From assembly GCA_943348815.1 (NCBI GenBank), contig CALQYT010000005.1, forward strand, positions 5,167 to 69,166: 64,000 nucleotides of DNA, given 5' to 3'. The position numbers were made by a program, and so were the translations under genes. The DNA comes from Candidatus Nomurabacteria bacterium (GTDB lineage Bacteria; Patescibacteriota; Minisyncoccia; Phycocordibacterales; SBAW01). Below are positions 1,274-59,806 of this stretch, in pieces. The stretch's first letter is position 1. The number at the start of each line of letters is the position of its first letter. The notes below the pieces were generated by a model. The model made no database searches and had not been told where the DNA came from. It saw nothing but the letters and a program-made list of their open reading frames with translations.

Positions 1274-1465
1274 ATGACCATTCGCTGGCACTTTCGTTCG
1301 CTTCACACCCTTGTCGCTGTGTCGCTTATTGCCGCTTGCGCGGCAGTTGCCATTCACGTGGGCCCGAGGGTCTATCGGGATCTCACGGCGGACTACTACC
1401 GCTTTGGCAATTACGTCATCAAGACATGGCCCGGCGGCAGCGAGGTCTATGAAGCAGTGAACTAA
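1274..1465 (+). CDS. Small hypothetical membrane protein (63 aa), GC3-rich cassette
   Basis: ATG at 1274 preceded by a GAGGA RBS. One predicted TM segment (LHTLVAVSLIAACAAVAIHV). Followed by a hairpin plus T-tract terminator (about 1475-1510). Codon usage very GC3-rich. Confidence 0.35.
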   Translation: MTIRWHFRSLHTLVAVSLIAACAAVAIHVGPRVYRDLTADYYRFGNYVIKTWPGGSEVYEAVN

Positions 1466-1630
1466 CTTCCCGAGGGTGCGTCGGCAAAACCGGCGCGCCC
1501 TCATCGTTTTTATACGTGAGGTTATGCACTGTTGGTAATAAAATTTTCCTTGACCCTTCTATGCAATGGGTCTATACCAAAGATAGTGGCGTGCGTGAGT
1601 CCTTTTGAAATAAAGAGGGAATAAAAGAGA

Positions 1631-1776
1631 TGAAAGAAGCAAACTCGCCAACAACAACCAACTGGCGTAGTGACCTTGAGTACACGTTCGGCAAACCCGC
1701 GGTGCGTTGCGGTATCTGGATTATCTCTCTCACCCCTCTTGTGGCGATTGTCCTGGCCGCGCTTTGGTTTGCCTAA
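1631..1776 (+). CDS. Small hypothetical membrane peptide (48 aa)
   Basis: TTGACC-17-TATACC promoter-like element at 1551-1579. RBS AGAGGGA. ORF MKEANSPTTTNWRSDLEYTFGKPAVRCGIWIISLTPLVAIVLAALWFA with a C-terminal TM segment. Hairpin AGCCCA...TGGGCT plus ATTTTG after the stop. Confidence 0.3.
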
Positions 1777-1824
1777 AGCGCCGCGACGAGAATTGTCACG
1801 AAGAGTAGCCCATATTCGTGTGGG

Positions 1825-3345
1825 CTATTTTGATGCCTCTTCCAAACGTTTAACCACAAACTCTTTTGGTAGAGACGAAAGAAACCATCCGGCCTTGGGG
1901 CCGTGGTCCTTACCAAAAAATGCCAAATAGATTGCCTTAAACTCTTTTAGCTCATGCAGTTTGCTATGTAGGTCTTCCCCACTAGGCATTGTTTCAAATA
2001 CTACGATATATCGTAGTATTTCTTGTAGCGCTTTTTTCTGGACATCAGTTAGATTTTTTGCAACGTCGGGCAAAGTTTCTTGCAGTTTGAAAACATATTT
2101 CTCCGGCGCGTACGCCTCGAGCCATTTTTTGGCATAGGCGGCGCGCTCGTCTAACTCGGCACGGTCGGCGTTGGGGAATTCTTTATACAAATCCATGTGC
2201 GGCATCTGCACCATAAACGCTACCTGGCTAAAACGCGGCGGCACCGAGCGCGTTGGTATCTTGCGCTCTGGGTGGATCATTTCAAACAGCCGGGCATAAT
2301 CGTCCTTGGCATTTGACCAGTAACTTTCTGCCAGTTTGTCGTATTGGTCATACAAAACAGGTATCGAGTCCCCTTCCGGATCAAAGTTTCGCTGCTGCGT
2401 TATATCCTTACCAATGAGGGACAATCTAAACATCTTAGGCGGCAGAAGCTCAAAGATCGAACGCGCCGTGCTACCAAGGCCTTTGGACGAGGATATTTTT
2501 TTACCCCCAACCAAAAAGAATTCGTGTGCGACGAAGAACGGCGTCTCGTACTTGAAAACTTCGCGCGAGACATGATCGGCAACCTCGTGAGCTCCACCCT
2601 TGGTTGAGTGATCTTTACCGCCGCCTTCTACCTCTATTCCGCGCGCCTTCCATTTGGCTGCCCATTCGACCTTCCATGGCAATTTACCCCTGCCACCAAA
2701 CGGAGAGAGTCTGCCTTTGTAACCGCAACCGTTTGTGTACTTTACTTTATCTGGACGACAAAATACTTGCACTGTCTCGCCGTCAAAATCAGAAGCTTCG
2801 GTGGTTGCTATTTTTCCACAAGTTGGGCATTTCATCAGGATAGGGAGCCACTCACCCTCTCTCACCCCGCCAGATACTTCTTTATAAATGCGGCGGATCT
2901 CATCGGCACCGAGCAGCGCTTCGCGGATAACCCCATCCATTTTGCCCGAAAGATACCAGTCACTACTAAAATCAAAAATTGGATTAAAGCCCGTGCCTTT
3001 TATTACTTCGCGAAAATCATTCGCAAAATACTCAGCGTAATTCTTGGCGCTCTCGTCGGGAGATGGAACATCCCGCAGTGACTTAGCCAGGTGTGGCTCA
3101 AGATTTTTCCCCGCCAGATAGACGGGAATGCCATCAAAGGCGTCCATATCATTAAACTCAAAGTAATACGTGTTGGGTACATTCCTATCCGCAAGCGCCT
3201 CGCCGATGATGCCATGCATCGCGGCACTGAGCATTGAGCCAATGTGGGCAAAACCCGACATGGTCTTTTCATCACGAATAACCACCGGCCCTTTAGGGCC
3301 AAAGCGGTTCATCACCTCTTGTGCAATACGGTCTGCCCAAAACAT
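1825..3345 (-). CDS. lysK: Class I lysyl-tRNA synthetase (archaeal/spirochaete type)
   Basis: 506 aa. HIGS (HIGH-type) motif near the N-terminus and KISSSKG (KMSKS-type) motif. Internal Zn-binding CPTCGK segment. Overall architecture of LysRS-I. Confidence 0.85.
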   Translation of the reverse strand: MFWADRIAQEVMNRFGPKGPVVIRDEKTMSGFAHIGSMLSAAMHGIIGEALADRNVPNTYYFEFNDMDAFDGIPVYLAGKNLEPHLAKSLRDVPSPDESAKNYAEYFANDFREVIKGTGFNPIFDFSSDWYLSGKMDGVIREALLGADEIRRIYKEVSGGVREGEWLPILMKCPTCGKIATTEASDFDGETVQVFCRPDKVKYTNGCGYKGRLSPFGGRGKLPWKVEWAAKWKARGIEVEGGGKDHSTKGGAHEVADHVSREVFKYETPFFVAHEFFLVGGKKISSSKGLGSTARSIFELLPPKMFRLSLIGKDITQQRNFDPEGDSIPVLYDQYDKLAESYWSNAKDDYARLFEMIHPERKIPTRSVPPRFSQVAFMVQMPHMDLYKEFPNADRAELDERAAYAKKWLEAYAPEKYVFKLQETLPDVAKNLTDVQKKALQEILRYIVVFETMPSGEDLHSKLHELKEFKAIYLAFFGKDHGPKAGWFLSSLPKEFVVKRLEEASK

Positions 3346-3476
3346 TCTGCTTATTGTAGCCTAAGTGGGCTTAATTTTCTCTCTTCGCAGATTCTTGACA
3401 TCTTCATTTTAGTGTGCGAATGTGTGTCTGACAGCGGGGATCTCCCCCTGTTCGACCATCAACAGGAGTACGCACC

Positions 3477-3881
3477 TTGAAGACAGCTACCTCTTCTGCC
3501 AAAGGCATCAACGGCCAAGGCACCAATGGTCATCCCAAAGCCGGCTTGTTGGCTGGGACTGCGCTGCGCTCGCAAAAGCCGCGGAAGGCGGCCACTAGCG
3601 GCAAAAGAAAATCCACCTCGGTCGACAAACACATCGGCGGCCGTGTCCGCATGCGGCGCGAAGAGCTCGGCATGAGCCAGAAAAAACTTGGCAATGCCAT
3701 CGGGGTCGAATATCAACAGATCCAGAAGTACGAGCTCGGCAACAACCGGCTCCCCATCAGCCGCCTGCTCCAGATCGGGCTGGCCTTGAAGGACACGCCG
3801 ATCACCTTCTTCACCGAAGGAGCGACGGATCTGCTCAAGCCGGCGGCCGGTACCCAGGGCGACAAAAAGCCCACCACCTAG
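3477..3881 (+). CDS. XRE-family helix-turn-helix transcriptional regulator (TTG start)
   Basis: TTG start with an AGGAG RBS 8 nt upstream. HTH_3 signature GGRVRMRREELGMSQKKLGNAIGVEYQQIQKYELGNNR. Very GC3-rich, alphaproteobacterial-like codon usage. Intrinsic terminator at about 3905-3942. Confidence 0.7.
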   Translation: MKTATSSAKGINGQGTNGHPKAGLLAGTALRSQKPRKAATSGKRKSTSVDKHIGGRVRMRREELGMSQKKLGNAIGVEYQQIQKYELGNNRLPISRLLQIGLALKDTPITFFTEGATDLLKPAAGTQGDKKPTT

Positions 3882-3977
3882 TTCCTCGAGACATCACGAA
3901 ATGCAGCGCCCCGGACCTTCGATGGTCTGGGGCGTTTTGTTTATACAAATCAACACAATTTCTATATTTTGGTAGTC

Positions 3978-4006
3978 TTGACAAATATGCTTTTATAGAT
4001 TATAGT
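3978..4006 (+). promoter_or_regulatory. Near-consensus sigma70 promoter (TTGACA-17-TATAGT) driving the Omp25-like gene
   Basis: TTGACA at 3978-3983, 17-nt spacer, TATAGT at 4001-4006. Strong RBS AAGGGGGAT precedes the ATG at 4067. Confidence 0.55.
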
Positions 4007-4066
4007 TGAAGGTGGTAATCCGGCGCAGCACGCGTCTGGATCAAGCACCCTAAGGGGGATTTTGAC

Positions 4067-4740
4067 ATGCGTACTACTTTCAGCCTCGCTGCTCTCGCTC
4101 TGGCGGCCGCTTTCTTCTCGACTGCGGCGACTGCCCAGAATCTGCCCTACAAGGTCGCACCGACCGGCTACGACTGGAACAACTGGTACATCGGCGGCAG
4201 CGTCGGTGGCAGCTTCGCCAAGCTCGTCACAGAGCCAAGCGACCCGGTCGACTCCCTGAAACCGAATACGATCAATCTCGGCATTCAGGTTGGCAAGAAC
4301 TGGCGGCCCAGATCAACCTCGGCAAGGGCACTCGGGTCACCTCGGATCCCTTCTTTACGTTGACCGAGACGACCCAGATCCCCTACCAGGGGACGGTATT
4401 GGGCCGCATCGGTGTGTTGCCGACACCGAACATGTATGTCTACATCGGTGCCGGCGTGAGCCTGGCGCAGGTGACGCAGACAGCGCGCTTCGACGACATC
4501 TTCGGCTTTGCAGGCTGGACCAAGAGTACCAGCATTGCGGCCGGCCCGACCGGTGTGATCGGTCTGGAATTTAAACTCCCGGCCGGCTGGTCGCTCGATA
4601 CCCGCTACCAGGCCACGGACTTCTTCATGTCCAAGACCACCTCAGGATGCTCGTTCTGCGGCCCCGACTTTACGTCGAAGAGCAGCATCGTCCAGCACAC
4701 CTTCAAGGTCGGTTTCAACAAGGCCATCCGCGGCGAGTAA
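4067..4740 (+). pseudogene. Omp25/Omp31-family outer-membrane beta-barrel (porin family) gene interrupted by a frameshift near 4300-4360
   Basis: N-terminal signal peptide MRTTFSLAALALAAAFFSTAATAQ plus YDWNNWYIGGSVGG. The second ORF (4360-4740) continues the barrel with alternating amphipathic strands and ends KVGFNKAIRGE. Two overlapping ORFs in different frames. Paralog of the intact gene at 43822-44505. Confidence 0.6.
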
Positions 4741-4825
4741 CCGCGGCCGGCAAGTCCTTCAGTACAAAAAAAGAAACGGCAGCGCTCCCAGGATCACAAC
4801 CTGGGAGCGAATTGTTTATGCGGAG

Positions 4826-5330: not shown

Positions 5331-7004
5331 CTAGTCGGCAAACAGGTACTGCGGCGCATTGGCATTAAGCCAGGTAAAAAAATCACTCATTACGGCCGAT
5401 CCACCTATCGTGGTACCAGCCGGAAGATGCTCTAACACCACCGCATACGCGTAGTGCGGATTTTCGTACGGCCAAAAACCGATCATCCACGCGTTTTGCG
5501 CTTCGTTGTGCAGACCAATCTGCGCCGTGCCGGTCTTGGCCGCCACGTGTACAAAGGGAAAATTGATTGCGGTGGCAATGCCTACGGTTACTCCTTGCCG
5601 CATCCCCTCGCGCGCCACCTGCAGTGCATGCGCATCAATAGACACGGTTGTGCCTTGTGGTGTCGATGAAGCCACCAAGGTGGGTGTAAGCAGCGTTCCA
5701 CCATTGGCGATCGTTGCGGCCATGCGCACGGCCTGCAGCGGCGTAATCAGCGTGCCATACTGCCCTATTGCCGTGTGGTAGGTGTCGCCGATGCGCCAGG
5801 TTGGGTCGTCGGGGAAGTTTTCTGCCTTCCACTCCGGCGTGGGGATAGTGCCGCCGACTTCAGAAAATCCGCTGAGCCCCGCATCGTGCCCTAACCCAAA
5901 GCGCTGCAAATAATCGTCAATCCGGCTAATACCGAGCCCCGGCTGATTTTGAAACCCGCCGCCCACTTCATAAAAATAAACGTCGCACGAAACGGCAATA
6001 GCATCGCGTGCGTCGACCCACCCGTTGACGCGCCAGTCTTTAAAAATCGACGGCTGGTCCGGGTTGTACGGGTTGGGCAATACGAGTTTGCCGGTCGAAA
6101 GAATTTTGGTGTACTCGTCGATTACCTTTTCATTAATAGCTGCGGCGGCCATGAGCGGTTTAACAATCGATCCCGGCGCGTACAAGCCGTCGGTCGCACG
6201 ATTTAAAAACGGCAGACGCTTGTCGGCATTGTAGGCGGCTATCGATGCGGAGTTGCCGCCGCTGAGTGCCGTCGACGAATATTCTGGGAAACTCGTAAGC
6301 GCCAGAAGCTCGCCCGTGCGCACATCCATCACGACACCCGCCGCGCCGGTCGCGTGCGCATCCGTTGCACGCGTCGCCAAGACGCTATAGAGCCCTTGCG
6401 AAACCCGTGCGTCGACCGAAAGTGTGAGTTTGCCTCCAGCCTGAGGCGGGGTGACTTTGGACTCCGAAACTACTTTGCCGCGCGCATCGGTTTCGGTAAG
6501 CGTCAAACCATTTTGCCCGGCGAGCGTCGTGTCAAATGCTTTTTCTGCGCCATCGACACCCAAAAACGTGTTGCGAAAATAAAATCCGGCCGAGTCTTTG
6601 GCGGGCGGCTTAACATACCCCACGACATGCGACACTCCTTGATAGTCGGAGTACACGCGCTGCGCAAACTCGTCGGTGGAGGTTGCTCCCCCGCGCTCGT
6701 TCCACGCCAGGGGCCGCCCCGTGCGGTCTACAATGGTGCCGCGGTCGGCAATGATCGTCGTCTGTTCAAGCTGATTCTCCCGTGCCTGTTTAGCATAGGC
6801 CGTGCCTTGTAAAAGCTGGAGGTCGCTTGCGCGTGCTAAAAGTAAAAGTCCTAAGAGCACCAACACCGCCGCTGCGCCGGCAAAGCGTCCGGGCGAAAGT
6901 GGCTTTTCGATTCGGCCCTCAAACTGGTCGCGGTCAAACTTTGCGCTATTTTCCGAATCGAGCAAAATCTCGTCGGGAAAAATTTCCGGCGAGCGCTCTT
7001 TCAT
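5331..7004 (-). CDS. mrdA: Penicillin-binding protein 2 (elongasome transpeptidase)
   Basis: 557 aa. N-terminal TM segment. Transpeptidase motifs SIVKP (SxxK), SCD (SxN) and KTGT. Last gene of the mreBCD-mrdA cluster. Confidence 0.85.
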   Translation of the reverse strand: MKERSPEIFPDEILLDSENSAKFDRDQFEGRIEKPLSPGRFAGAAAVLVLLGLLLLARASDLQLLQGTAYAKQARENQLEQTTIIADRGTIVDRTGRPLAWNERGGATSTDEFAQRVYSDYQGVSHVVGYVKPPAKDSAGFYFRNTFLGVDGAEKAFDTTLAGQNGLTLTETDARGKVVSESKVTPPQAGGKLTLSVDARVSQGLYSVLATRATDAHATGAAGVVMDVRTGELLALTSFPEYSSTALSGGNSASIAAYNADKRLPFLNRATDGLYAPGSIVKPLMAAAAINEKVIDEYTKILSTGKLVLPNPYNPDQPSIFKDWRVNGWVDARDAIAVSCDVYFYEVGGGFQNQPGLGISRIDDYLQRFGLGHDAGLSGFSEVGGTIPTPEWKAENFPDDPTWRIGDTYHTAIGQYGTLITPLQAVRMAATIANGGTLLTPTLVASSTPQGTTVSIDAHALQVAREGMRQGVTVGIATAINFPFVHVAAKTGTAQIGLHNEAQNAWMIGFWPYENPHYAYAVVLEHLPAGTTIGGSAVMSDFFTWLNANAPQYLFAD

Positions 7005-7297
7005 AACGTCTCGCGCGGATTAGAATCGATGACAAACCGTTTGCCCCAAAGATGTGCGAGCGTGCCTACAAGTGCAAAAATAGTAACGGGGAAATAAAAA
7101 TAGGCGGCCGTGCCGGTGGGCGCGCCCCACGCGATGTCGAGCAGGAGTGCTAGACAAACCCCAAATACAAAACGGCCGGAGAGGGTTGCTACTGCCACGC
7201 CGATTATTGCCACCGGCCACAGCGGGATAAGAAACCCGGCCGCCGCAAGCACAAACGTGGTGGCATATATCCATCGGCTGGCGGCGTTGGGTATCAT
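7001..7297 (-). CDS. mreD: Rod shape-determining protein MreD (putative)
   Basis: 98-aa polytopic membrane protein located between mreC and mrdA. Confidence 0.55.
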   Translation of the reverse strand: MIPNAASRWIYATTFVLAAAGFLIPLWPVAIIGVAVATLSGRFVFGVCLALLLDIAWGAPTGTAAYFYFPVTIFALVGTLAHLWGKRFVIDSNPRETL

Positions 7298-8019
7298 GGT
7301 TTTATAATTTCGACATACCGGAGCTCAAACACATTCGCCGGTTCTTGAAAGTATAACGCCACAAACGAGTCGCTTTCGCCGGCACCGACGCCCACTACCT
7401 CTGCTACCAACCCACCCGCAATGCCCGGCAGTACTGCCTGGTCGCCTACCGTCGCTATGGTGGCTGCCGGCACCTGTGCGCGCAGCGAACCCCCACCTTG
7501 GCCCTCTAACTCGAGTGGCAGCGTACCGTGGGCCGTCGTGAGTAGCGCCTGATACTTTTGCCCGGGGGCCGAAAAAAGCGTCACGCGCGCCGTATGCGTG
7601 TATACCTGGGCGACCGTGCCAAGAATGCGCGTACCGCCAGCCGACACCAACGCGCCTTCCGCAACCCCCTCCGCAGAGCCCGCATCAACGACCAGGGTGT
7701 CGTAGGGGGTTGCGGGCGGGCGGGAAAGCACGCCCGCCAACACGCGCATGCCTTCGACCTCCGGACGGCCGAGGCGCGCCTTCAAATCTTTATTTTCCGC
7801 CGCAAGGGCGGCATACTCGGCGCTTGTTTCAAGCGAGGGGTTGGCACTCGCAAATCGCCACTGCATAAGCGGCGTCACGAGTTGCCACCAGGCGGCACTA
7901 AGCGGCCCACGCAAAAATATCGCCAACAAAATAACCAGCACGACTACACCGGCAAGCCACCAACCGCCCGAGCCACGCTTACCTCGTCTGCTATAAATCT
8001 GAGCGTTATTGAATGTCAT
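7294..8019 (-). CDS. mreC: Rod shape-determining protein MreC
   Basis: 241 aa. N-terminal TM segment, coiled-coil (AAENKDLKARL) and a Gly-rich beta domain. Synteny with mreB. Confidence 0.8.
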   Translation of the reverse strand: MTFNNAQIYSRRGKRGSGGWWLAGVVVLVILLAIFLRGPLSAAWWQLVTPLMQWRFASANPSLETSAEYAALAAENKDLKARLGRPEVEGMRVLAGVLSRPPATPYDTLVVDAGSAEGVAEGALVSAGGTRILGTVAQVYTHTARVTLFSAPGQKYQALLTTAHGTLPLELEGQGGGSLRAQVPAATIATVGDQAVLPGIAGGLVAEVVGVGAGESDSFVALYFQEPANVFELRYVEIIKP

Positions 8020-9061
8020 CGTCGTGCTCGGAGAGCATATCGCGATACAGCTCGAAGTTCTCCAAAATTACTCCGGTCCCACGCGCCACCGCCGTCAGCG
8101 GATCGTCGGCTACTACCACTGGTACCTTGAGCCACTCAGCCAATAGTGCGTCGAGCCCTTTGAGCAGCGCGCCGCCACCCGTGAGTACTATCCCTGAGCG
8201 CATAATGTCAGAAAGGATTTCGGGCGGGGTTGTTTCAAGCACCTCGCGCACCGACTCTATGAGCGTGTCGATCGACTGCGATATCGCCTCGCGCACATCG
8301 GCATCGGTAATAATAATCTCGCGCGGCAAACCGGTAATTAAATCGCGCCCGCGGATCGCCGCCTCCAAATGCCCTGCGCCTTCGGCTACCGAACCTATGG
8401 CGATTTTGACCGACTCGGCTGTTTTTTCGCCAATCAAAATTTTAAAGGCCGAACGGACATACGAAACAATATCTTGGTTGAGTTTTTCCCCGGCGATCCG
8501 CAAATTTTTAGAGCGTACAATCCCCCCGAGCGAAAGTACCGCGATGTCCGTGTTGCCGCCGCCAATATCGACGATCATCGATCCCACCGCTTCGCGTATA
8601 GGCAAACGCACTCCCAGGGCTGCGGCGATGGGCTCTTCGACAATATAAACCTCGCGCGCACCGGCGTTTTGTGCGGCGTCTTTAACCGCGCGCATCTCGA
8701 CGTTGGTAATCCCACTCGGCACCCCAATCACGACGCGCGGTCCGAGCATCTTTTTAGACATCGCTTGGGCGCGATTCATCAAGTACGAAAGCATCTCTTC
8801 GGTCGCCTCAAAGTCTGACACCACCCCATCAACCAGCGGCTTAACCGCGACCAGGTGTGCGGGCGTGCGGCCCAACATTTGCCGTGCGGCAGTCCCTACT
8901 GCAACCACCTGTCCCGTCTTTTGGTTGATCGCGACCACTGAAGGTTCGGTCACGACAATTCCCTTGCCACGCAAGTAGACCAGCGTATTGGCCGTGCCGA
9001 GGTCAACCCCGATATCGTTAGAAACCAGCGGAGAAAACTTTTTTTGAAATCTGCTCCACAT
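8006..9061 (-). CDS. mreB: Rod shape-determining actin homolog MreB
   Basis: 351 aa. IGVDLGTANTLVY phosphate-1 motif, MIVDIGGGNTD phosphate-2, and LTGGGALLKGLD. Confidence 0.9.
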   Translation of the reverse strand: MWSRFQKKFSPLVSNDIGVDLGTANTLVYLRGKGIVVTEPSVVAINQKTGQVVAVGTAARQMLGRTPAHLVAVKPLVDGVVSDFEATEEMLSYLMNRAQAMSKKMLGPRVVIGVPSGITNVEMRAVKDAAQNAGAREVYIVEEPIAAALGVRLPIREAVGSMIVDIGGGNTDIAVLSLGGIVRSKNLRIAGEKLNQDIVSYVRSAFKILIGEKTAESVKIAIGSVAEGAGHLEAAIRGRDLITGLPREIIITDADVREAISQSIDTLIESVREVLETTPPEILSDIMRSGIVLTGGGALLKGLDALLAEWLKVPVVVADDPLTAVARGTGVILENFELYRDMLSEHDDDIQ

Positions 9062-9062
9062 T

Positions 9063-10358
9063 TCAGTCCGCGCGCAGATGGCTCAATAATTCAGACAAAG
9101 TTTTGTGCGCTGCCGTTCCTGACGCGCGCTCGACACATTCGTATCTACCCGCTTCGAGCGACTTTTGCGACACGATCACGCGCAGCGGTATGCCCAGCAA
9201 GTCGCTGTCGGCAAATTTTTCGCCCGCACGCACATCGCGGTCGTCCCACAGCACCTCAACTCCCGCTTCGGTCAACTCGCGGTACAACTCTTGTGCGTCT
9301 TTTTGCACCTCTTCATTCCCCGCCGAAAGGTCAACCAAGTGCACACGGAAGGGCGCGAGTGCTTCGGGCCAGACAATGCCTTTGTCGTCGGCAAAAACCT
9401 CCACCGCCGTACCTATTAATCGATCTATCCCAATACCATACGATCCCATAATCACCGGTTGGTTGGCGCCCGCCTCGTCTTTAAACGTCAATCCGAGCGG
9501 CTCGGAATAAAAAGTACCGAGTTTATAGATATTACCTACCTCAACTGCTTTTTCTTCGCGAAGGTCCTCTTTTCGCAGACCAAGTTCAGAAAGAGTCTCA
9601 TCACTGTATACCTCTTTGTTTACTGCCAGCTTACGGCCCTCATGTATATAAATAGTATCTTCTCCCGCGCTGGTGAGCGTCTGAAACTCGTGGCTGAATT
9701 TGGTTCCAAAGCTACCCCCGCTAGCCAACGTGAGGTAGGTTTTGTCGCCCAACCCCACACGATTAAACACCGCGCGATATGCCTCGATTGCCGCTTCGTA
9801 AAAAGTATCAAGCTCTTTCTGATTTTTAGAAAACGAATACAAATCTTTCATTGTAAATTGTCGCAATCGAAAGATGCCGCTTTTCGCACGTAACTCATTA
9901 CGAAACTTAAGTTGAAATTGATATGCGGCGGTCGGCAAATCGCGATATGAGCTGACATAGCCTTTCATCAACTGTGTAATCGCTGGCTCATGAGTATAAG
10001 CGAGGCCTAATTCGGTATCGTTCTTGAGTTTAGTTTTAAACCAGTTATCAACTACCGCATCATCCCATCTGCCAGTTTTTTCCCAAACTTCTTTGTCTTG
10101 TAGAGCGGTCATGACCATTTCTTGTCCCCCGATCTTGTTCATCTCTTCCCGCACGATCTGCTCAACTTTTTTGAAAACACGCAACCCGAGCGGCAAATAG
10201 GAGTAGACTCCTGCCATTTCTTTGTGGATGTAGCCGCCGCGCACGAGCAGTTGAGCATTCTTAGAAACCTCATCTGACGGTGCCTCGCGGCGCGTTTTAG
10301 TAAAGAGTTGTGACTGGCGCATGCAAGCCATTGTACGCTTGAAATACCAAGCAGGCAA
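9063..10358 (-). CDS. proS: Prolyl-tRNA synthetase (short form without INS editing domain)
   Basis: Class II motifs FRLRQFTMKDLYSF (motif 2 region) and GSYGIGIDRLIG (motif 3). N-terminus MRQSQLFTKTRREAP. The true start may be the internal Met at 10322 or 10331. Confidence 0.8.
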   Translation of the reverse strand: MPAWYFKRTMACMRQSQLFTKTRREAPSDEVSKNAQLLVRGGYIHKEMAGVYSYLPLGLRVFKKVEQIVREEMNKIGGQEMVMTALQDKEVWEKTGRWDDAVVDNWFKTKLKNDTELGLAYTHEPAITQLMKGYVSSYRDLPTAAYQFQLKFRNELRAKSGIFRLRQFTMKDLYSFSKNQKELDTFYEAAIEAYRAVFNRVGLGDKTYLTLASGGSFGTKFSHEFQTLTSAGEDTIYIHEGRKLAVNKEVYSDETLSELGLRKEDLREEKAVEVGNIYKLGTFYSEPLGLTFKDEAGANQPVIMGSYGIGIDRLIGTAVEVFADDKGIVWPEALAPFRVHLVDLSAGNEEVQKDAQELYRELTEAGVEVLWDDRDVRAGEKFADSDLLGIPLRVIVSQKSLEAGRYECVERASGTAAHKTLSELLSHLRAD

Positions 10359-10383: not shown

Positions 10384-10412
10384 TTGACTTTTGATGTTTA
10401 GTATGCTACACT
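10384..10412 (+). promoter_or_regulatory. Near-consensus sigma70 promoter TTGACT-17-TACACT for ORF 10495
   Basis: TTGACT at 10384-10389, 17-nt spacer, TACACT at 10407-10412. A GGGGGAAAG RBS lies immediately upstream of the ATG at 10495. Confidence 0.5.
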
Positions 10413-10494
10413 TGTCACAGCTCTGTACCGGGCTAAAAGTGCCTAAACCCGCCCCGTAAGGGGCTTTTCGAACTTTCCTGAAAGGGGGAAAGAC

Positions 10495-11601
10495 ATGACT
10501 GCATTAGCAGCGGCCTTAGGGGCCGCCGGACTGACTGGAACGACGGACACCAAAATCCCCGACGCTCCGAAAGACGGCCGCCGGTTCGGCGTCCGTAAAG
10601 GTTTGAGCGGCGGCAGGAAAAGCCGTTGGGGCAGATCTGATCGTCCAAACATGATCGAATGGACGCACGACGAGATCGGCTCCATCAAGATCGAGCTGAT
10701 CAAGTTCACGCTCGGTAGCGTGATCCACCACGAAGGGCCCAACACCTGGAGCCGGATCAACTTCGGCAACCTGGAAAAGCCCAAGCACGTTAAACTCGAT
10801 TTCTCGTACGACCTCAAAGGCGACGTCGAGTTGATCTGGGCCTGCGGCGACAAGGTGATGGACACCCGCGAGGGTAATCCGCCACAGTTCGTCGTACCCA
10901 TCACCTGGAAGCCGGGCCGCAAGACGGGCGATCCGGATATGCCCGAGGTGTCGCACGGCAACAATGAAGACTTCCAGCTCTATGCGTTCAACACCAAGAC
11001 TGGCTTCTGCGTCCACCTCGACATCAGCGCGGTCTCGCGTCATGGCGAGTTCTGGTTGACCGTGCAGGAAGTCACCGGCGCGCGTCTTGCATGGCATAAT
11101 CCCGACCTCACCATCGAGGAGTTGACCTCGGTCGTCGTCGACGACAAGGCCTACACGCTGGTTCCGGTCTACAGCGAAAATTGCTATCCGGGTTTCGATC
11201 CGGTGGCAAGTTGGCAGCGCAGCTACCCCGGCCGCATCGAACAAATCCTTAACTATGCGGTCACGTGGAACGCCGCCGTCCCCGTGGAAGAATGCGAAAT
11301 CGCCACGTGGAAGCCTGAGTGGCCGGCCCAGGTGCCGGACGATCTTGCGTCGAAGGGCTACCACAAGGCGGTTGTCCTTTGGTACAACCTGACGATTGGT
11401 CAAGGTCGCCTCCAGCTCGAGAGCGGCGAGGTGTGCTTCGTCCACTTCAAAGCCGTCCAGGACCAAAACGGTAATTTCCTGGCGCAGCAGGGCGAATTCC
11501 CTGTTCTTCTGCCGGCCACGGGCGTTTACGTCAAGTACATGCTCAAGCCGGACAGGGACCAGGAAATGAAGCCGGCTGCCACGGTGGCACGGGTAGCCTA
11601 G
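10495..11601 (+). CDS. Hypothetical protein (368 aa), GC3-rich cassette between proS and valS
   Basis: Long ORF with a strong RBS and a promoter. No recognisable catalytic motif. N-terminal 50 aa are low-complexity Gly/Arg-rich. Intrinsic terminator 11635-11668. The antisense ORF 10516-11466 is a composition artefact. Confidence 0.5.
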   Translation: MTALAAALGAAGLTGTTDTKIPDAPKDGRRFGVRKGLSGGRKSRWGRSDRPNMIEWTHDEIGSIKIELIKFTLGSVIHHEGPNTWSRINFGNLEKPKHVKLDFSYDLKGDVELIWACGDKVMDTREGNPPQFVVPITWKPGRKTGDPDMPEVSHGNNEDFQLYAFNTKTGFCVHLDISAVSRHGEFWLTVQEVTGARLAWHNPDLTIEELTSVVVDDKAYTLVPVYSENCYPGFDPVASWQRSYPGRIEQILNYAVTWNAAVPVEECEIATWKPEWPAQVPDDLASKGYHKAVVLWYNLTIGQGRLQLESGEVCFVHFKAVQDQNGNFLAQQGEFPVLLPATGVYVKYMLKPDRDQEMKPAATVARVA

Positions 11602-11634
11602 GCGGTCAGAAGAACCGCACTTCAGTTCAACTTC

Positions 11635-11668
11635 GGGGCGACATCTAACAAGGTGTCGCCCTTTTTTA
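11635..11668. terminator. Rho-independent terminator (GGGGCGACA...TGTCGCCC-TTTTTT), bidirectional position
   Basis: Perfect 8-bp stem followed by a T6 tract. Lies between convergent ORF 10495-11601 and valS. Confidence 0.6.
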
Positions 11669-15580: not shown

Positions 15581-15867
15581 GTTTGCATTGTATCAAATCC
15601 GGATGCAATAAGCCCCCAACCAGTAGATGGCGGGGGCAGGGTGGGTGCAGGAGTGATTGGTTCGCCTTGCTAGGTCGTAGCATGCCTCTTCCCCATTTGT
15701 GCTGGTGGCCCGGTCCGAGAACCGCCCTGTGTGCCTCTGGCTCCTTCGGGCCGAGGACACACACTGCCAGCCAACACAGAGGTTCGGCGTCGTGCACCAA
15801 CGCCGACGAACGCAAACCAGCTCCTGCACCCGCCGCAACTATACTCCCCTTTTTCAAAACAACAACC

Positions 15868-18208: not shown

Positions 18209-18284
18209 CGCAGGCCCATGATACTGGAGTTCCACTACCAAAACAAACGTGCTATAACAACGGCGGTAGGTGGGAGATAGCACC

Positions 18285-43821: not shown

Positions 43822-44505
43822 ATGAAACGTGCAATGATGGCAGCCCTCGGGCTGCTTGCGATGGCACCCGTGGCGCAAGCCGCGGATTTGCCAAGTCCTC
43901 CGTGGAAAGCGCCGGCGTTCTCGGCAGTCCCCGGAAACTTCAGTGGCCTCACCGTCGGCATCATCGGTGCTGGCGCGTGGGCGAGCGGCCCGACCAGTGG
44001 CGCGTTCGGTGGCATCCAGGTTGGCTACAATTGGCAAAACGGCCCCTGGGTGGTCGGCGTGAATACCGACATCCTGCTGGGCAGCCAGAAGCACTCGACC
44101 GGCGTCAACATGGCCGGCGTGAGCTTTGACTTCACGGACCGGGCGAACTATCTCGGTTCGGTTACCGCCAAACTGGGCGTCACTCCGGCGTCGCAATGGC
44201 TGTTCTACGGCGAAATCGGCGGGGCCTATAGCACCGTCTATCACAAGATTGGCCTCAGCCCGATCGCCGGCACTGTCTCGGCCAAGTCCAACAAGGTCGG
44301 ACTGACCGCAGGCGGGGGCGTCGTCTATGCTCTGACGCCGAATCTGCAACTCGAAGCCAAGTACAATGCGATCTGGTTCTCGGGTGATAGCCCCACCTAC
44401 GTCTACGGTCCGGTATCCTTCGTCGTCAGTTATCCGAAGGTCACCGAGCACGTGGCGAAGGTCGGCATCAACTACCGTTTCGACAACACCGCCTGGCGCT
44501 TCTAG
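43822..44505 (+). CDS. Omp25/Omp31-family outer-membrane beta-barrel protein (porin-family OMP), intact
   Basis: Signal peptide MKRAMMAALGLLAMAPVAQA. Alternating-hydrophobic strands. C-terminal ...VGINYRF with terminal Phe. GGGAGAAATTGAA RBS. GC3-rich. Terminator 44540-44575. Confidence 0.7.
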   Translation: MKRAMMAALGLLAMAPVAQAADLPSPPWKAPAFSAVPGNFSGLTVGIIGAGAWASGPTSGAFGGIQVGYNWQNGPWVVGVNTDILLGSQKHSTGVNMAGVSFDFTDRANYLGSVTAKLGVTPASQWLFYGEIGGAYSTVYHKIGLSPIAGTVSAKSNKVGLTAGGGVVYALTPNLQLEAKYNAIWFSGDSPTYVYGPVSFVVSYPKVTEHVAKVGINYRFDNTAWRF

Positions 44506-44539
44506 ATCTAGATCTCGCCGCCAGCGATCCTCAAATGCA

Positions 44540-44575
44540 AAGGCCGCCCTTCGGGAGCGGCCTTTTTGTTTCCAA
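44540..44575. terminator. Bidirectional intrinsic terminator GGCCGCCC-TTCG-GGAGCGGCC-TTTTTG
   Basis: GC-rich stem with a TTCG tetraloop and a T-tract. Between the convergent OMP gene and the SWIB gene. Confidence 0.65.
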
Positions 44576-44591: not shown

Positions 44592-44849
44592 TTATTTCAT
44601 GTGGCCCGAGACGAGCTTCGTCATCTCGAACATAGTAACCTCTCCTTTGCCACCAAACAGCTTCTTAAGCTTGTCGTCCGCAAGGATGTTGCGCTTATTC
44701 TTAGGATTCTGAAGATTATGCTTCTTGATGTACTCCCAGATCTTTTTAACAACCGTGCCGCGCGACATAGGACCTTTGCCTACGACGGCTTCCAAATCGG
44801 CGGAGAGATTAAGGGGCTTGAGTAATGCGGGGTTAGCTTTGCGTACCAT
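44592..44849 (-). CDS. SWIB/MDM2-domain protein
   Basis: 85 aa. GKGPMSRGTVVKKIWEYIKKHNLQNPKNKRNILADDKLKKLFG is the canonical SWIB motif. Confidence 0.8.
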   Translation of the reverse strand: MVRKANPALLKPLNLSADLEAVVGKGPMSRGTVVKKIWEYIKKHNLQNPKNKRNILADDKLKKLFGGKGEVTMFEMTKLVSGHMK

Positions 44850-44934: not shown

Positions 44935-45108
44935 ATGCACGTAACCTTTACCTGCAAATATTGTGGACACGAAGAGCACGGCGAGGCCTCCCGGCTCCTC
45001 ATGACCAAGATTAGGATGTGGAACCATCTCAACGATGCCCATCCGGGCCTGGTTGAGCCATTTTCTAGCTCGGTTGAGGAGGCGATGCAGCCCACCGAGG
45101 CGGCATAA
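44935..45108 (+). CDS. Possible small Cys/His-containing protein (57 aa)
   Basis: MHVTFTCKYCGHEEHGEASRLLMTKIRMWNHLNDAHPGLVEPF... GC3-rich. Below the 60-aa ORF-track cutoff. No clear RBS. Confidence 0.25.
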   Translation: MHVTFTCKYCGHEEHGEASRLLMTKIRMWNHLNDAHPGLVEPFSSSVEEAMQPTEAA

Positions 45109-49847: not shown

Positions 49848-49936
49848 TGAAACTAGCCTATCATAATTTGCTAATTTAAATTTTTAAATTAAAACCGGCC
49901 GCCTCCTCCTGAGAGAAAGCGGCCGGGTCGAACTTG

Positions 49937-50587
49937 TTAGCCAATTCGCCACCAGGTGGCGGTGCCGAAGATCAGCGCAACGGCGATCACCGCGCCCCAG
50001 GGACCAGCGTCCCAAAGCGGATAGGGCGGGAAGTCGGCCGATGGATTCATCTTTTCCAGCATGTGGTTGCCGGCGAAGACGTGCGCCGTCATGTACCACG
50101 CAGTAAACAGCAGCAGCGCAGGGTTCGGGTTTTCCGTGGCGATGTAAGTGAGAATCAGGATCGTTATCGCCGCGGTAAACAGGACGAAGTGCGTCTTGCC
50201 GGCGGCGTTCAGTCCGCCGTCGGTGATCATGTAGTCCGGGTACGGCACCAACGTGTAGAGATAGTGCATACCCGCACTTATCAGGATTGCGATGATCAAG
50301 GCGAAGCCAACCGCATAGACCTTGGTCTGATAGCCGAAGGCCCGCAGTTCGATCATCTTGTCCATGGTCCACTCCTCAGCGTGGAGCGCGACCAGAGTTG
50401 CCATCAGCGGGATCAGTCCAAACAGTACCATCCAGGTGCTACCGTGCCGGAAGAAGGTGATGCCTTGCTCGATCCCAGCCGCTTTCATTTGCGCGGGATA
50501 AAGCATGTTGCCGATCCAGGCCAGGAATGCTTGCAGCAGCCAGAGTGCGACTCCAACCCCTGCCGTCCAGAACCAAAGACGCACCAT
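49937..50587 (-). CDS. Hypothetical polytopic membrane protein (216 aa), GC3-rich cassette
   Basis: About 6 TM segments. Terminator CCGGCCGC...GCGGCCGG-TTTTAATTTAAA downstream on the minus strand (49884-49930). Confidence 0.4.
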   Translation of the reverse strand: MVRLWFWTAGVGVALWLLQAFLAWIGNMLYPAQMKAAGIEQGITFFRHGSTWMVLFGLIPLMATLVALHAEEWTMDKMIELRAFGYQTKVYAVGFALIIAILISAGMHYLYTLVPYPDYMITDGGLNAAGKTHFVLFTAAITILILTYIATENPNPALLLFTAWYMTAHVFAGNHMLEKMNPSADFPPYPLWDAGPWGAVIAVALIFGTATWWRIG

Positions 50588-50716
50588 GTGCGCCCCCTTT
50601 CTTTGCTTGTGTTAAACCAAAAACTCAACGTTCAGTTCGCGAGCACAATACCACATTGGTTATAAAAATCAATAGTTAAATTAAAAATGGCCGGGTGCTT
50701 ACGCAACTCGGCCAGA

Positions 50717-51019
50717 TTACCCTTTGATTGCGACCCGAAGGAAAGCCCCCACCAATGCGCCGAAACACAGTAAAGCGATGGCGACCAAAATCCGAATGGC
50801 TTCCAAAGTATTGCGTCCTCCGTGACTCTTGATCCACTCGAGCGTGGAGGGGTCGAACTGGTCGACAACAGAAGCTGGAAACGCTTGTAGCCACGGGAAG
50901 AGGAGCGCTAGCACCACATAGACCGTGCAGACCAAAAGCACCAGCCCGAACCTCCAGAACAGGCCCGTAAGCAGGCCTGCAATTACGATCACCAACAAGG
51001 ATGCTTGCAGCGTCGACAT
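50717..51019 (-). CDS. Hypothetical small membrane protein (100 aa), GC3-rich cassette
   Basis: GAGGA RBS. 3 TM segments. Terminator GGCCG...CGGCC-ATTTTTAATTTAAC (50650-50700, minus strand). Confidence 0.4.
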   Translation of the reverse strand: MSTLQASLLVIVIAGLLTGLFWRFGLVLLVCTVYVVLALLFPWLQAFPASVVDQFDPSTLEWIKSHGGRNTLEAIRILVAIALLCFGALVGAFLRVAIKG

Positions 51020-51098
51020 GATGTCCTCGAAATCGGTTAGAGGGATACGCAGGAACGAATCACCCCAAAAATATCACGAGGTATACTTATTTCCAACC

Positions 51099-52280
51099 AT
51101 GAAGATCGCGTTTTATTCGGACAACTTTTACCCCGAACTATCGGGGATCACCGACACCATTGTCACGACCGGCAAAGAATTAAAAAAACGCGGGCACGAG
51201 ATTGTGTACGTCGGCCCCTACTACGCGCCCGCCGACTACGCCAAAGCCAACCGGCAGTATCCCGAGCGGCCCGAGGACGACCAGATTGAAGGCATGCCGA
51301 TTGTGCGGCTGCGCTCTATCCCCCTGCGCCCCTCGCCCACCGGCCAATCGCGCTTTGCTATCCCCTCCGGCCGTACGCTCGAGTACATGCGCACCTTTAA
51401 GCCCGATATCATCCACACCCAGAGCCCCTACTCGCTTGGGTGGGAGGCGCGCAAAGTGGCAGTGGGTTTGGGCGTGCCGCTCGTGGGCACTAACCACACG
51501 GCTATTGAAGATTTTTTTCCGCCCTTTACGCGCGCACTGATGCGCCGGTGGGACGCGCGCTACTACAACTCGTGCGATTTTGTGTCGGCACCGTATGAGC
51601 GACTGCTAGGGCGCATGCGCGAGGTTGGATTTAAAAAGCCTGGCCACGCCGTCCCCAACCCCGCCGACCTGCATGAGTTTTTGCCCGCGACTGCCGAAGA
51701 AAAAATTGCGGATCGTGAAGCGTTTGGCTTGCAAGGACCGGTGATTTTGTATGCGGGCCGGCTCGGCGTCGAAAAGCGTGTCGATGTGATGGTGCGCGCA
51801 ATGCCGATACTGCTTAAAGAATTCCCCACGCTCACGTTGGTGGCAACGGGGCACGGCGCCGCGCGCACCGGTTTGGACAAGCTGGTCCAAAAACTTGGCG
51901 TGGCCAAGCAGGTGCGCTTTACCGGCTTTCTCTCGCGCGCGGCGCTCACCCACGCCTACAAAACCGCCGACCTTTTTGGTATGACCTCAACCTCCGACAG
52001 CCAATCGTTGGCGCTCATGCAAGGCTATGCCTCTGGGTTGCCGGCGGTGTGCGCCGCTGCACGCGGCTTGCCCGACTACGTGCCCGCCGATTGCGGCTTT
52101 TTAATCGAACCTAACAACCCCGCCGACTTTGCCGCCAAAGCCGCGCAACTCCTGCGCGACGAACCGCTGCGCGCCCGCATGGGCGTAGCCGCGATCGACT
52201 ATTCTAAAAATTTCGCCCCCGAAAAAATTGCGCAGCAGTGGGAGGAGATCTACTCCGAGGCACTCAAAAAGACTCCCTAG
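51099..52280 (+). CDS. GT4-family (GT-B) glycosyltransferase
   Basis: Start MKIAFYSDNFYPELSGI (ATG 51099). C-terminal E-X7-E-like region (LALMQGYASGLPAV). Confidence 0.75.
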   Translation: MKIAFYSDNFYPELSGITDTIVTTGKELKKRGHEIVYVGPYYAPADYAKANRQYPERPEDDQIEGMPIVRLRSIPLRPSPTGQSRFAIPSGRTLEYMRTFKPDIIHTQSPYSLGWEARKVAVGLGVPLVGTNHTAIEDFFPPFTRALMRRWDARYYNSCDFVSAPYERLLGRMREVGFKKPGHAVPNPADLHEFLPATAEEKIADREAFGLQGPVILYAGRLGVEKRVDVMVRAMPILLKEFPTLTLVATGHGAARTGLDKLVQKLGVAKQVRFTGFLSRAALTHAYKTADLFGMTSTSDSQSLALMQGYASGLPAVCAAARGLPDYVPADCGFLIEPNNPADFAAKAAQLLRDEPLRARMGVAAIDYSKNFAPEKIAQQWEEIYSEALKKTP

Positions 52281-58391: not shown

Positions 58392-59392
58392 AGGCCTATG
58401 AGCAACACGCTGGCAAGGCGGTTGAGGATTCGCGCTTCAGTCATATGATGGCTATAGCACTTGACCCTAGCTCTCACTACAAAAAAGGGGTCATACGCTG
58501 CATCACCAGCCGCGAGGGAGACGTGGCTACAAAAGGATATATAGACCGAAGCGAGTTATATACAATCTCCGGAGAAACGCTGGAGAAATTTTTGGTTGGA
58601 GAACGACTACAAATAAAAAACGAAAAAGAAACTTTAGACCGGCTCAACAGCGAAGAGTGGAATTTTATAGGGCTTGAAGACCCGGATATCTTTGTCGACG
58701 ACAAGACCGGCCTCACTCATCTGTACTTTACGATGCCGCTTCTTAATAGAGACTCAACAAAAGAACAAGCTCTTATAAATCTGGGACACGCTGTGGGTCG
58801 AAATCTAGACTCGCTCGAGATGACTATGCCTGCACTGCAAGCAGATGCAAACAATACTGCAAAAGAAGTTTCTATCGCACCCATAAACTCCAAAGGAGTT
58901 CGTTACAATCTTATCGAATCAAGCTCGATTGAGGATGGGGTGTGGTATTCGACCGTGCGCGTTGCTATTGCCGCTGACATGGGTATGCCATGGCAGTTTG
59001 GCGAGACGGTCTTCCATCCAAATAAGCACAACATCCCGTGGATAGGCGGGCACGCATCGCCCGGACCGCTCTTTTCTAAAACATTTATTGATGTCGGCGA
59101 GGGCAAGGCGGTCGGGGTAATCAACGGCCGCGAGGCCAACAAGCACAAGGGTGGTAAAACTGTGTATGGAATATTTTCTGTCGGGCTTTTTATCTACGAT
59201 TATGAAAAAGGAACGATTGATTGGGTCTCACCCGAGCCGTTTATCCACGATACCGAGGCGCGTACTATTACTTTTGCCAGCCAATTTGTCGAAACAAAAC
59301 CGGGCGAAGGAGTTTTGTACGCGCACGTCGACGACTCGTTTGTCAGGGCTTATACCCTGCATGCCGAAAGTATTAGAGCTCTCCTCCCCTGA
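58388..59392 (+). CDS. Hypothetical beta-propeller-like protein (334 aa)
   Basis: Lower-GC ORF. No clear motif. Confidence 0.4.
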   Translation: MKAYEQHAGKAVEDSRFSHMMAIALDPSSHYKKGVIRCITSREGDVATKGYIDRSELYTISGETLEKFLVGERLQIKNEKETLDRLNSEEWNFIGLEDPDIFVDDKTGLTHLYFTMPLLNRDSTKEQALINLGHAVGRNLDSLEMTMPALQADANNTAKEVSIAPINSKGVRYNLIESSSIEDGVWYSTVRVAIAADMGMPWQFGETVFHPNKHNIPWIGGHASPGPLFSKTFIDVGEGKAVGVINGREANKHKGGKTVYGIFSVGLFIYDYEKGTIDWVSPEPFIHDTEARTITFASQFVETKPGEGVLYAHVDDSFVRAYTLHAESIRALLP

Positions 59393-59457
59393 GCAAGGTT
59401 CGACCTTGCTCACTTGCAGGTTAAACCTGCAGAATAAGCAAGGTCCGACCTTGCTTA
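59391..59457. repeat. REP cluster: GAGCAAGG-TTCGA-CCTTGCTC / TGCAGGTTAAACCTGCA / AAGCAAGG-TCCGA-CCTTGCTT
   Basis: Three adjacent hairpins combining both REP families seen elsewhere in the window. Confidence 0.6.
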
Positions 59458-59560
59458 TTTGTTGTGCTGTAAGGATTTTTGATATATTGACGAAAAACAG
59501 TTTTGGAGGTATAATCGGGATAAGTTCGAAGTTCCGTTTTAACCCAAGGAGAAGACCCCG

Positions 59561-59806
59561 ATGGACGAGAGTCCTCACTTCTACGTTCGGACCTATGACA
59601 CTCCAGGTTGGCTGGTGCTCGCAATGCTCTGCATTACGCTGCTTGCCTGCTGGGTGTCATATCACACGCCGCCAAGCATGGAACGGCTCGGTTACTGGCT
59701 CGCCACAGCAATAGCCGCGGCCTTCAGCGCGTTCCTGGTGTACCGCTGGATATATGGCCGACCGGTGCGACATGACTGCGTCGACCCGATGATCCGGGAC
59801 ATCTGA
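59561..59806 (+). CDS. Small membrane protein (81 aa), GC3-rich cassette
   Basis: AAGGAGAAG RBS. Two TM segments (WLVLAMLCITLLACWV, WLATAIAAAFSAFLVY). Confidence 0.4.
   Translation: MDESPHFYVRTYDTPGWLVLAMLCITLLACWVSYHTPPSMERLGYWLATAIAAAFSAFLVYRWIYGRPVRHDCVDPMIRDI

Follow-up and report, generated by a model that had tools for sequence, protein, structure and literature searches.

Genes acquired by horizontal transfer usually drift toward the composition of their host genome. Another kind of foreign-looking gene is the phage moron; as described by Hendrix and colleagues, morons are reportedly extra genes in lambdoid phage genomes that carry their own promoter and terminator. In bacterial genomes more generally, "atypical" genes in the sense of GeneMarkS-2 are a patchily distributed minority whose codon statistics set them apart, and they are frequently lower in GC than typical genes (PMC6028130). 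Genomes of the GeneMarkS-2 "group C" (Actinobacteria, Deinococcus-Thermus) mix leaderless genes with genes led by a Shine-Dalgarno (SD) site (PMC6028130). Here, we analyzed 64,000 nucleotides of a Candidatus Nomurabacteria bacterium (GCA_943348815.1, contig CALQYT010000005.1, positions 5,167 to 69,166), referred to below as the window, within the public contig ena:ERZ27280317:k141_122670 (75,641 bp). About 15 of its genes, 7.8 kb in total, are written in a different codon dialect from the rest. We call these B genes, and the remaining genes native or backbone genes.

B units resemble phage morons in being single genes between conserved backbone genes, with their own sigma-70 promoter and factor-independent terminator and an odd base composition. 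However, their backbone is a cellular chromosome (proS, valS, mreB, murA, lysS, glnA, and hem neighbors) with no phage or viral match, and the units persist at syntenic sites across species. As in atypical genes, their composition is unlike that of the resident genome and their distribution among close relatives is patchy, whereas mobility marks, an identifiable donor, or a composition decaying toward the host were not found. B genes also differ from atypical genes in being richer in GC at third codon positions (GC3), in keeping their composition during co-divergence, and in their initiation mode as well as their codons. The likeness to group C genomes (PMC6028130) lies in a Pribnow box 6 to 8 nt before first-in-operon starts and SD-led genes in the same genome, but in the present DNA the way in which a gene is initiated goes together with a distinct codon dialect and with being accessory. 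Integron cassettes are promoterless and share an attC-type site and an integrase; B units have their own promoters, and we found no shared border element beyond terminator tails. In our literature search, no publication linked codon dialect to initiation mode and accessory status, and none described a leaderless grammar in Patescibacteria.

An earlier note on this DNA, made from the letters alone, had described GC3-rich cassettes in intergenic gaps of a different backbone. All of the open reading frames (ORFs) that it listed were found where it placed them, and none cuts a backbone gene, as the note had held. Its description of their GC3 as extreme was overstated: the flagged mean is higher (0.70 versus 0.585), but only 10 of 18 ORFs reach 0.70 or more, the distributions overlap, and the comparison is circular since the ORFs had been picked by GC3 in the first place. 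We used a second measure, idx, which is (TTC+ATC+AAG)/(TTC+TTT+ATC+ATT+ATA+AAA) with AAG also counted in the denominator, i.e., over all Phe, Ile, and Lys codons. In the window, idx was bimodal: ~57 backbone genes clustered around 0.29 and ~15 B genes around 0.69. An unsupervised two-component mixture (means 0.69 and 0.29) was strongly preferred (Bayesian information criterion, −67 versus −30). Backbone genes ranged from 0.12 to 0.44, plus two mild outliers, and flagged genes with enough informative codons ranged from 0.57 to 0.85. Ten ORF segments passed Bonferroni correction against the backbone idx rate (p = 1e-16 for 10495-11601), and thirteen flagged genes are B class by their codons. ORFs 1274, 18285, 34240, and 44935 have too few informative codons for a class call; in the first three of these tiny ORFs, a B-type SD site and terminator are present. 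GC3 is a blunt measure of this split: it is 0.55 in the flagged ORF 25513-26022 and reaches 0.71 in two unflagged backbone genes, amtB (37592-38953) and a glycosyltransferase gene (50925-52280), whose idx is backbone-like (0.25 and 0.31, respectively). The observation is real and stronger than GC3 would indicate.

The two dialects part in particular codon families. In pooled counts, B genes exceeded the backbone in Phe TTC (0.77 versus 0.19), Ile ATC (0.74 versus 0.38), Lys AAG (0.59 versus 0.30), and Val GTC (0.45 versus 0.24), while the use of Asn, Glu, Ala, Gly, Pro, and Thr codons hardly differed. When codons were sorted by their first two bases (S, G or C; W, A or T; order S-S, S-W, W-S, W-W), B GC3 was 0.70, 0.70, 0.74, and 0.70, whereas backbone GC3 was 0.70, 0.58, 0.68, and 0.40. 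Native genes favor TTT, ATT/ATA, and AAA, so their GC3 falls in A/T-rich contexts. GC2 and amino acid usage are likewise shifted in B genes.

Expression signals separated the same two classes. Using the start codons called on the public contigs, we found a median SD duplex of −7.8 kcal/mol for B genes and −3.0 kcal/mol for other genes (p = 1.3e-4); duplexes of −6 kcal/mol or stronger were found in 73% and 17%, respectively. Among 54 backbone genes, 21 had a TANNNT box (mostly TACAAT, TATAAT, or TATACT) that ends 5 to 9 nt before the start, whereas none of 14 B genes did; 5.5% would be expected at random. From these positions, first-in-operon backbone genes are probably leaderless mRNAs. Boxes of this type lie 6 to 7 nt before ATG, with no SD, at 10323-10335 (proS), 3346-3360 (lysS), 15581-15595 (frr), and 36135-36149 (glnA). 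B promoters lie 60 to 90 nt upstream, and two copies of TTGACA-17-TATAGT (at 1187 and 3978; 11 of 12 matches) were the best promoter matches in 1-20 kb. A hairpin of −12 kcal/mol or stronger followed by a T-run ends 88% of B units but 26% of backbone 3' ends, window-wide, and the five strongest terminators within 1-20 kb each lie 3' of a flagged ORF. Several terminators share tails, namely GCGGCTTTTT (34545, 34630, 35484, and 36009, among others) and TTTTTAATTTAA (34145, 34550, and 50676 on the minus strand). The strong ribosome-binding sites, near-consensus sigma-70 promoters, Rho-independent terminators, and common tails that the earlier note had described were thus borne out, and the two-class mosaic of self-contained units in intergenic gaps is genuine. 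Several B units are antisense to neighboring genes, and their terminators probably insulate adjacent operons against read-through.

We recovered 80 syntenic loci from relatives. Genes in relatives were called with an amino acid composition score in place of a caller working on codon positions 1 and 2; the latter was rejected, as it picked antisense shadows of GC3-rich genes (e.g., 10516-11466 on the minus strand, where tblastn showed that the plus frame alone is conserved). Among genes found in 10 or more of the 80 loci, only 1 to 3% exceeded core GC3 by more than 0.10, compared to 29 to 32% of genes found in 2 to 9 loci, and idx across relatives had a heavy right tail of 67 genes. In ~77 related genomes, the leaderless signature was found in 3.5% of B genes (n = 57) and 39% of core genes (n = 906; p = 2e-9), and a strong SD site in 53% and 12%, respectively (p = 1e-18 for SD strength). 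The context split of GC3 also appeared in 33 related genomes, with B GC3 at ~0.68 to 0.73 in every context and backbone S-S codons anywhere from 0.40 to 0.89. In a GC-rich relative (L176), backbone idx was 0.35 to 0.45 at a GC3 of 0.8, and the B orthologue had an idx of 0.81. The split, seen in dozens of related genomes, is therefore biology and no artifact of assembly.

These numbers also bear on the suggestion in the earlier note that the contig is chimeric or engineered. Sharp borders in composition and textbook promoter-RBS-terminator units (RBS, ribosome-binding site) would fit such an origin. However, the cassette junctions recur in separately assembled contigs of other runs (Logan ERR5863124 and ERR5863125; ENA ERZ27280321), including lysS-HTH-OMP-greA (HTH, helix-turn-helix; OMP, outer membrane protein), proS-10495-valS, the HisI-like gene, the five-gene cluster beside glnA, and hemH-OMP-SWIB. 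Junctions were tested at 1-10 kb, 9-17 kb, 20-26 kb, 33-45 kb, and 62-64 kb and were identical throughout, and the junction between the five-unit cluster and glnA is also present in Logan contig L173. The same architecture occurs in dozens of related metagenome-assembled genomes (MAGs), and B genes fill the same slot in more than 20 MAGs that other studies assembled independently. Both readings are refuted, and we give them a negligible probability.

B genes gather in conserved hot spots. The gap beside proS (proS/rseP) holds an opposite-strand B gene in more than 20 genomes, drawn from at least three B families in different genomes: cold-shock-domain, 145- to 236-aa, and 340- to 480-aa proteins. 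In several of their members, these families start alike (M-x-x-L-x-A-A-L-x-x-A-G...; L003-L082, locus ~6600-8700, e.g., the window gene, L012, L029, L030, and L031), which hints that bodies of different kinds follow a common N-terminal module. Another hot spot is the gap between greA and lysS, where L020 has an OMP_b-brl gene.

The B gene beside proS in the window, 10495-11601, has orthologues in at least 10 genomes, each in this slot. With the exception of L010 (0.58 versus a backbone of 0.60), they are GC3-rich relative to their own backbone, e.g., 0.87 versus 0.52 in L048, 0.88 versus 0.45 in L043, and 0.65 versus 0.42 in L030. A search of 5.8 billion proteins added only five clusters, at 44 to 53% identity, and P0076, the one whose context was read, showed exact synteny. 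The contexts found for this family were Adlerbacteria-like only and always beside proS, and scans of IMG/VR with 10495-11601 and 33194-34090 gave no relatives. In two B families of eight genomes each, the mean idx difference (didx) was 0.43 to 0.44, and every member exceeded 0.15. For 14 B orthologue pairs, residual identity at 4-fold sites tracked that of core genes from the same genome pair (B, 0.05 to 0.92; core, 0.12 to 0.72). Protein identity was 0.5 to 0.6 for B and 0.7 to 0.77 for core genes, i.e., B proteins evolve faster. Since 4-fold identity tracks the core while composition is kept, these B genes share their neighbors' history, with most synonymous sites turned over. This rules out a simple, un-ameliorated recent import for those families. 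Two classes thus exist and recur across the clade, and B genes are co-inherited with their neighbors while their composition persists.

We also compared ProS and MreB identity with pairwise identity in the cold-shock family; there was no correlation, a result that carries little information since the genomes lie nearly equidistant and proS itself is mosaic. ProS and MreB identities clash for the same genome pairs (L030, L031, L029, L010, and L024; for L031 and L030, 97% for MreB and 61% for ProS), and the proS region itself seems to have been exchanged between lineages.

The individual units, with proS as an example of native grammar, are as follows (SD, duplex energy in kcal/mol).

1187-1502, plus strand: small unit with promoter TTGACA-17-TATAGT (1187-1215), 63-aa ORF (1274-1465), and 13-bp-stem terminator (1472-1502); SD −5.6; 7 informative codons, too few for a class call, with promoter, SD, and terminator of B type.
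3477-3936, plus strand: B gene for an XRE-type HTH regulator of 134 aa (ORF 3477-3881; Pfam HTH_3, E = 1e-7), terminator 3905-3936; idx 0.67, GC3 0.76, SD −6.9.
3978-4809, plus strand: B gene for an OMP_b-brl beta-barrel with a frameshift; promoter 3978-4006, pieces 4067-4363 and 4360-4740 (idx 0.82 and 0.79), terminator 4783-4809; SD −10.2.
9063-10358, minus strand: proS, native grammar; TACAAT ends 7 nt before ATG, no SD, backbone idx 0.25.
10384-11662, plus strand: B gene for a 368-aa protein with a C-terminal cold-shock domain; promoter-like sequence 10384-10412, ORF 10495-11601, terminator 11635-11662.
18285-18484, plus strand: 55-aa Cys-rich ORF (18285-18452), terminator 18464-18484; SD −10.0; too short for a codon class.
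23074-23754, minus strand: B gene for a 226-aa protein with HisI (PRA-CH) domains in tandem (Pfam PRA-CH matches two stretches, E = 2e-29); idx 0.70, SD −11.2.
25513-26022, minus strand: weaker B gene for a 169-aa orphan; idx 0.57, GC3 0.55, SD −7.8, hairpin and T-run right after the stop.
33194-36030, plus strand: five-unit B cluster, 33194-34090 (298 aa; idx 0.65), 34240-34530 (96 aa; 0.33, n = 9), 34746-35159 (137 aa; 0.68), 35189-35467 (92 aa; 0.69), and 35588-35965 (125 aa; 0.62).
43822-44570, plus strand: B gene for an intact 227-aa OMP beta-barrel (ORF 43822-44505) with signal peptide, C-terminal Phe, and terminator; idx 0.83.
44592-44849, minus strand: SWIB-domain gene with B codons (idx 0.70, p = 2e-4), no SD, and no clear leader.
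44935-45108, plus strand: 57-aa Cys/His-rich ORF; 5 informative codons, too few for a class; weak SD, −3.2.
49860-51019, minus strand: two membrane-protein B genes, 49937-50587 (216 aa; idx 0.77, SD −10.6) and 50717-51019 (100 aa; idx 0.69, SD −5.9), with terminator hairpins of −28.8 and −15.3 kcal/mol, respectively.
59561-59860, plus strand: B gene for an 81-aa membrane protein (ORF 59561-59806); idx 0.62 (n = 8), SD −8.3, terminator −23.6 kcal/mol.

Most ORFs flagged by the earlier note are B class; its list missed the SWIB gene. The SWIB-domain family is rare in bacteria. The two pieces at 4067-4740 make up one beta-barrel gene, split near 4303-4308 by a single-base frameshift. Since a separate Logan assembly (L087) has the identical sequence, the shift is no artifact of assembly, and the gene is either truly a pseudogene or subject to programmed frameshifting. 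The intact barrel at 43822-44505 is unrelated to it. Its translation begins with MKRAMMAALGLLAMAPVAQA-ADL (a Sec signal peptide) and ends in ...AWRF, it matches Pfam OMP_b-brl at 42.6 bits (cutoff, 28.7) and also OmpA_membrane, and its AlphaFold2 model (pLDDT, 83) matches OmpA, OmpX, OmpW, and Ail in Foldseek (E = 1e-8 to 1e-6). In its signal peptide, OMP_b-brl match, C-terminal Phe, and predicted OmpA/OmpX/OmpW-like barrel, it resembles the 8-stranded Omp25/Omp31/RopB-type barrels of Alphaproteobacteria. It differs from them in being only 32 to 35% identical to any known member, in having a frameshifted second copy, and in being encoded by a lineage regarded as lacking an outer membrane. Candidate phyla radiation (CPR) bacteria are regarded as having none, and we found no report in the literature of outer membrane beta-barrels in Patescibacteria.

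The tandem HisI protein finds its best matches at ~50% identity in mixed taxa, over the C-terminal domain only; the first domain is degenerate, and no database match spanned both. The window holds no other histidine-pathway gene. In the five-unit cluster, four units end in their own hairpin and T-run terminator, three of which share the tail GC(G)GCTTTTT(T)AATTTA, while 34746-35159 continues directly into the next ORF. All five products are orphans in Pfam, PHROG, and PADLOC scans, and these scans likewise gave no match for 25513-26022. The 216-aa family (49937) has 121 representatives at E < 1e-3, with a best identity of 43%, and homologues of the 55-aa Cys-rich ORF are present in L047 and L038. 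All B proteins tested, including tandem HisI, are singletons at 90% clustering, whereas MreB falls in a cluster of 106 members. PHROG and PADLOC scans of B proteins found no phage or defense families, only generic HTH matches. B products are fast-evolving accessory proteins, namely membrane or exported proteins, nucleic acid binders, and orphans. Just beyond the window start, four further B-class genes (L086:15218-18325; two for membrane proteins of 194 and 176 aa, one 72-aa ORF, and one for an orphan of 267 aa) adjoin rplU, which is in native dialect.

What, then, keeps B genes distinct? In our account, one CPR genome contains two gene classes that differ in how they are written and expressed. 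Native genes would form operons that mostly open with a leaderless gene, its −10 box 5 to 9 nt before ATG, and would have little or no SD. A B gene is a stand-alone unit, with a sigma-70 promoter, a leader of 60 to 90 nt with a strong SD, an ORF at a GC3 of ~0.7 in every context, and a strong intrinsic terminator, and such units occupy conserved intergenic hot spots such as proS/rseP and greA/lysS. We infer that coding-sequence selection, tied to the use of stand-alone SD-led mRNAs, keeps B genes at their composition, which is neither a donor leftover nor ordinary high-expression bias; the argument is one of elimination, from ordinary translational selection and regional GC-biased conversion. 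As a whole, the account toward which we lean, if only by a little, is that of a second class of genes, present across the clade, whose dialect is maintained and whose mode of expression is its own. Several points weigh against it. Ribosomal proteins move slightly in the B direction (L21, +0.14 in 31 related loci; L27, +0.11; L9, +0.01), compared to +0.3 to +0.55 for B genes; these shifts come from the rest of the contig and a metagenome scan with L21, the mreB-centered loci having no ribosomal-protein genes. In an Akashi test of two families, conserved residues were not enriched in S-ending codons (odds ratio, 0.90 to 1.11; |z| < 1.2), and the rare Arg codons AGG, CGG, and CGA are not avoided in B genes but rise there. 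Among core genes, SD strength did not follow codon class (rho = −0.03), a value made noisy by guessed start codons. B GC3 stays near 0.72 whatever the backbone GC3 (0.40 to 0.89), which an external pool of fixed composition fits too; OMP_b-brl proteins, together with sub-threshold autotransporter-like and PEP-CTERM matches, point to import for part of the class; and co-divergence is drawn from 14 orthologue pairs in two or three hot spots.

Ordinary translational selection, in which B genes would be the most highly expressed genes and C- and G-ending codons optimal, draws on some of the same data. L21, L27, GroES, MraZ, and GreA all shift the same way, the promoters, SD sites, and terminators of B genes are strong, and one B product has a cold-shock domain, as do many abundant proteins. 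However, the small ribosomal shift is well below that of B genes, and L21 on this contig has an idx of only 0.41; B genes do not settle on one optimal codon in each family but show a flat GC3 of ~0.7, with rare Arg codons rising; and the Akashi test was negative. GC2 and amino acid usage shift as well, and the frameshifted pseudogene keeps the full B pattern. We regard this explanation as improbable. GC-biased gene conversion at recombination hot spots, which would raise the GC of the cassettes, is consistent with B genes lying in hot spots of allele and family turnover and with a bias that is independent of codon context and touches GC2. Against this, non-coding DNA flanking B genes is not GC-enriched (0.469 versus 0.483), 4-fold sites barely differ (B, 0.72; backbone, 0.67), and in S-S codons of GC-rich relatives B GC3 lies below that of the backbone, so that conversion appears highly improbable. 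We also considered B composition as the neutral equilibrium of the genome. This fits the window, where S-S GC3 is 0.70 in both classes, but it fails in relatives whose backbone S-S GC3 is 0.42 to 0.57, and it was rejected.

Continuing import is a different matter. Under this explanation, foreign expression cassettes would be repeatedly acquired from GC-richer, SD-using bacteria, plausibly the diderm hosts on which the episymbionts depend, and would not yet be ameliorated. The earlier note had proposed, as one alternative, a single alphaproteobacterial donor. The two beta-barrels do find their best matches in "outer membrane immunogenic protein" of Bradyrhizobium and Rhodopseudomonas, but the cold-shock family is lineage-only, HisI matches mixed taxa, and most others are orphans, so that such a donor is valid at most for the two OMP genes. 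For import more broadly, a more distant OMP homologue (P0029) sits in a typical proteobacterial context, related CPR MAGs carry another OMP_b-brl protein, a sub-threshold autotransporter beta-domain match, and a PEP-CTERM motif just under the cutoff, all in B dialect, and one OMP is decaying by frameshift. B proteins are singletons at 90% clustering, their distribution is patchy, and their composition is largely independent of the resident backbone. Yet outside matches of only 32 to 35% (OMP) or ~50% over one domain (HisI) show no recent donor, no homologue of the largest B family was detected beyond Adlerbacteria-like contexts, and whole families are B class at a syntenic site across deep divergence. 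Their synonymous divergence equals that of neighboring core genes, with no drift of composition toward the backbone. Direct repeats at cassette borders, which the note had proposed as a check, were absent, and around B genes we found no integrase, border repeat, tRNA-linked island, or viral match. We consider import unlikely as an explanation of the class, but an external pool of fixed composition is a serious rival for part of it, especially the diderm-type proteins. In the account that we favor, the origins of B genes are mixed: the cold-shock-domain family is known from this lineage only, and the beta-barrels come ultimately from diderm bacteria.

A more speculative reading, which we rate as a very long shot, is that B units are written for expression machinery other than the symbiont's, with genes or products that act in or on a diderm host. 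It would draw on their canonical sigma-70 promoters, SD sites, and terminators, on proteobacteria-like, context-free codons at a fixed composition, and on beta-barrels with a BAM-type C terminus that could not be assembled in a cell without an outer membrane. Such units might, for example, be transferred into the host and act there, or their products might insert into its outer membrane. To return to a maintained second gene class, two dialects in one small genome (native genes leaderless and rich in A/T tracts, accessory genes leadered, dependent on SD, and rich in GC3) would mean that a functional class of genes in CPR bacteria can be recognized by its codons and its mode of initiation. Since many B members are exported or membrane proteins, the class is a plausible place to look for host interaction genes of these uncultured organisms. 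Calls of horizontal transfer based on composition can, moreover, mislabel long-resident genes. A side finding of note is the question of what diderm-type outer membrane proteins do in a lineage thought to lack an outer membrane.

The window (52.8% GC) comes from the chromosome of a member of the Patescibacteria (CPR), of the Adlerbacteria/Paceibacteria kind. The MreB encoded there shares 89% identity with that of Patescibacteria MAGs labeled Adlerbacteria, Paceibacterota, or Kaiserbacteria. The window encodes class I LysRS, PBP2, MreC/D, two MreB paralogues, ProRS, a short ValRS, RseP, RRF, MurA, Def/Fmt, GlnA-AmtB, a heme pathway, and a hybrid histidine kinase. The MreB paralogues (8006-9061 and 17195-18295) lie 8 kb apart, and both are conserved clade-wide. 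The heme pathway (39856-43684; hemC, hemD, a chlorite-dismutase-like HemQ, hemE, and hemH) and glnA-amtB (36150-38953) are in native dialect, and these capacities are unexpected in a reduced CPR genome. An Rfam scan of the window found a single tRNA (Cys, 30892-30966), with no B gene adjoining, and no known riboswitch in the long leaders. A hairpin motif, CAAGGT(T/C)CGACCTTG, occurs six times against 0.16 expected (16634, 33084, 34661, 38984 on the minus strand, 59394, and 59439), mostly in intergenic DNA beside B units or at the ends of operons, and it could be an element like repetitive extragenic palindromes or a common terminator stem. Lastly, the palindrome CATATGATATATCATATG is present at 62187-62224 and 62640-62677, on either side of a Trp-repressor-like gene (62217-62654), of which the two copies are probably the operator pair.

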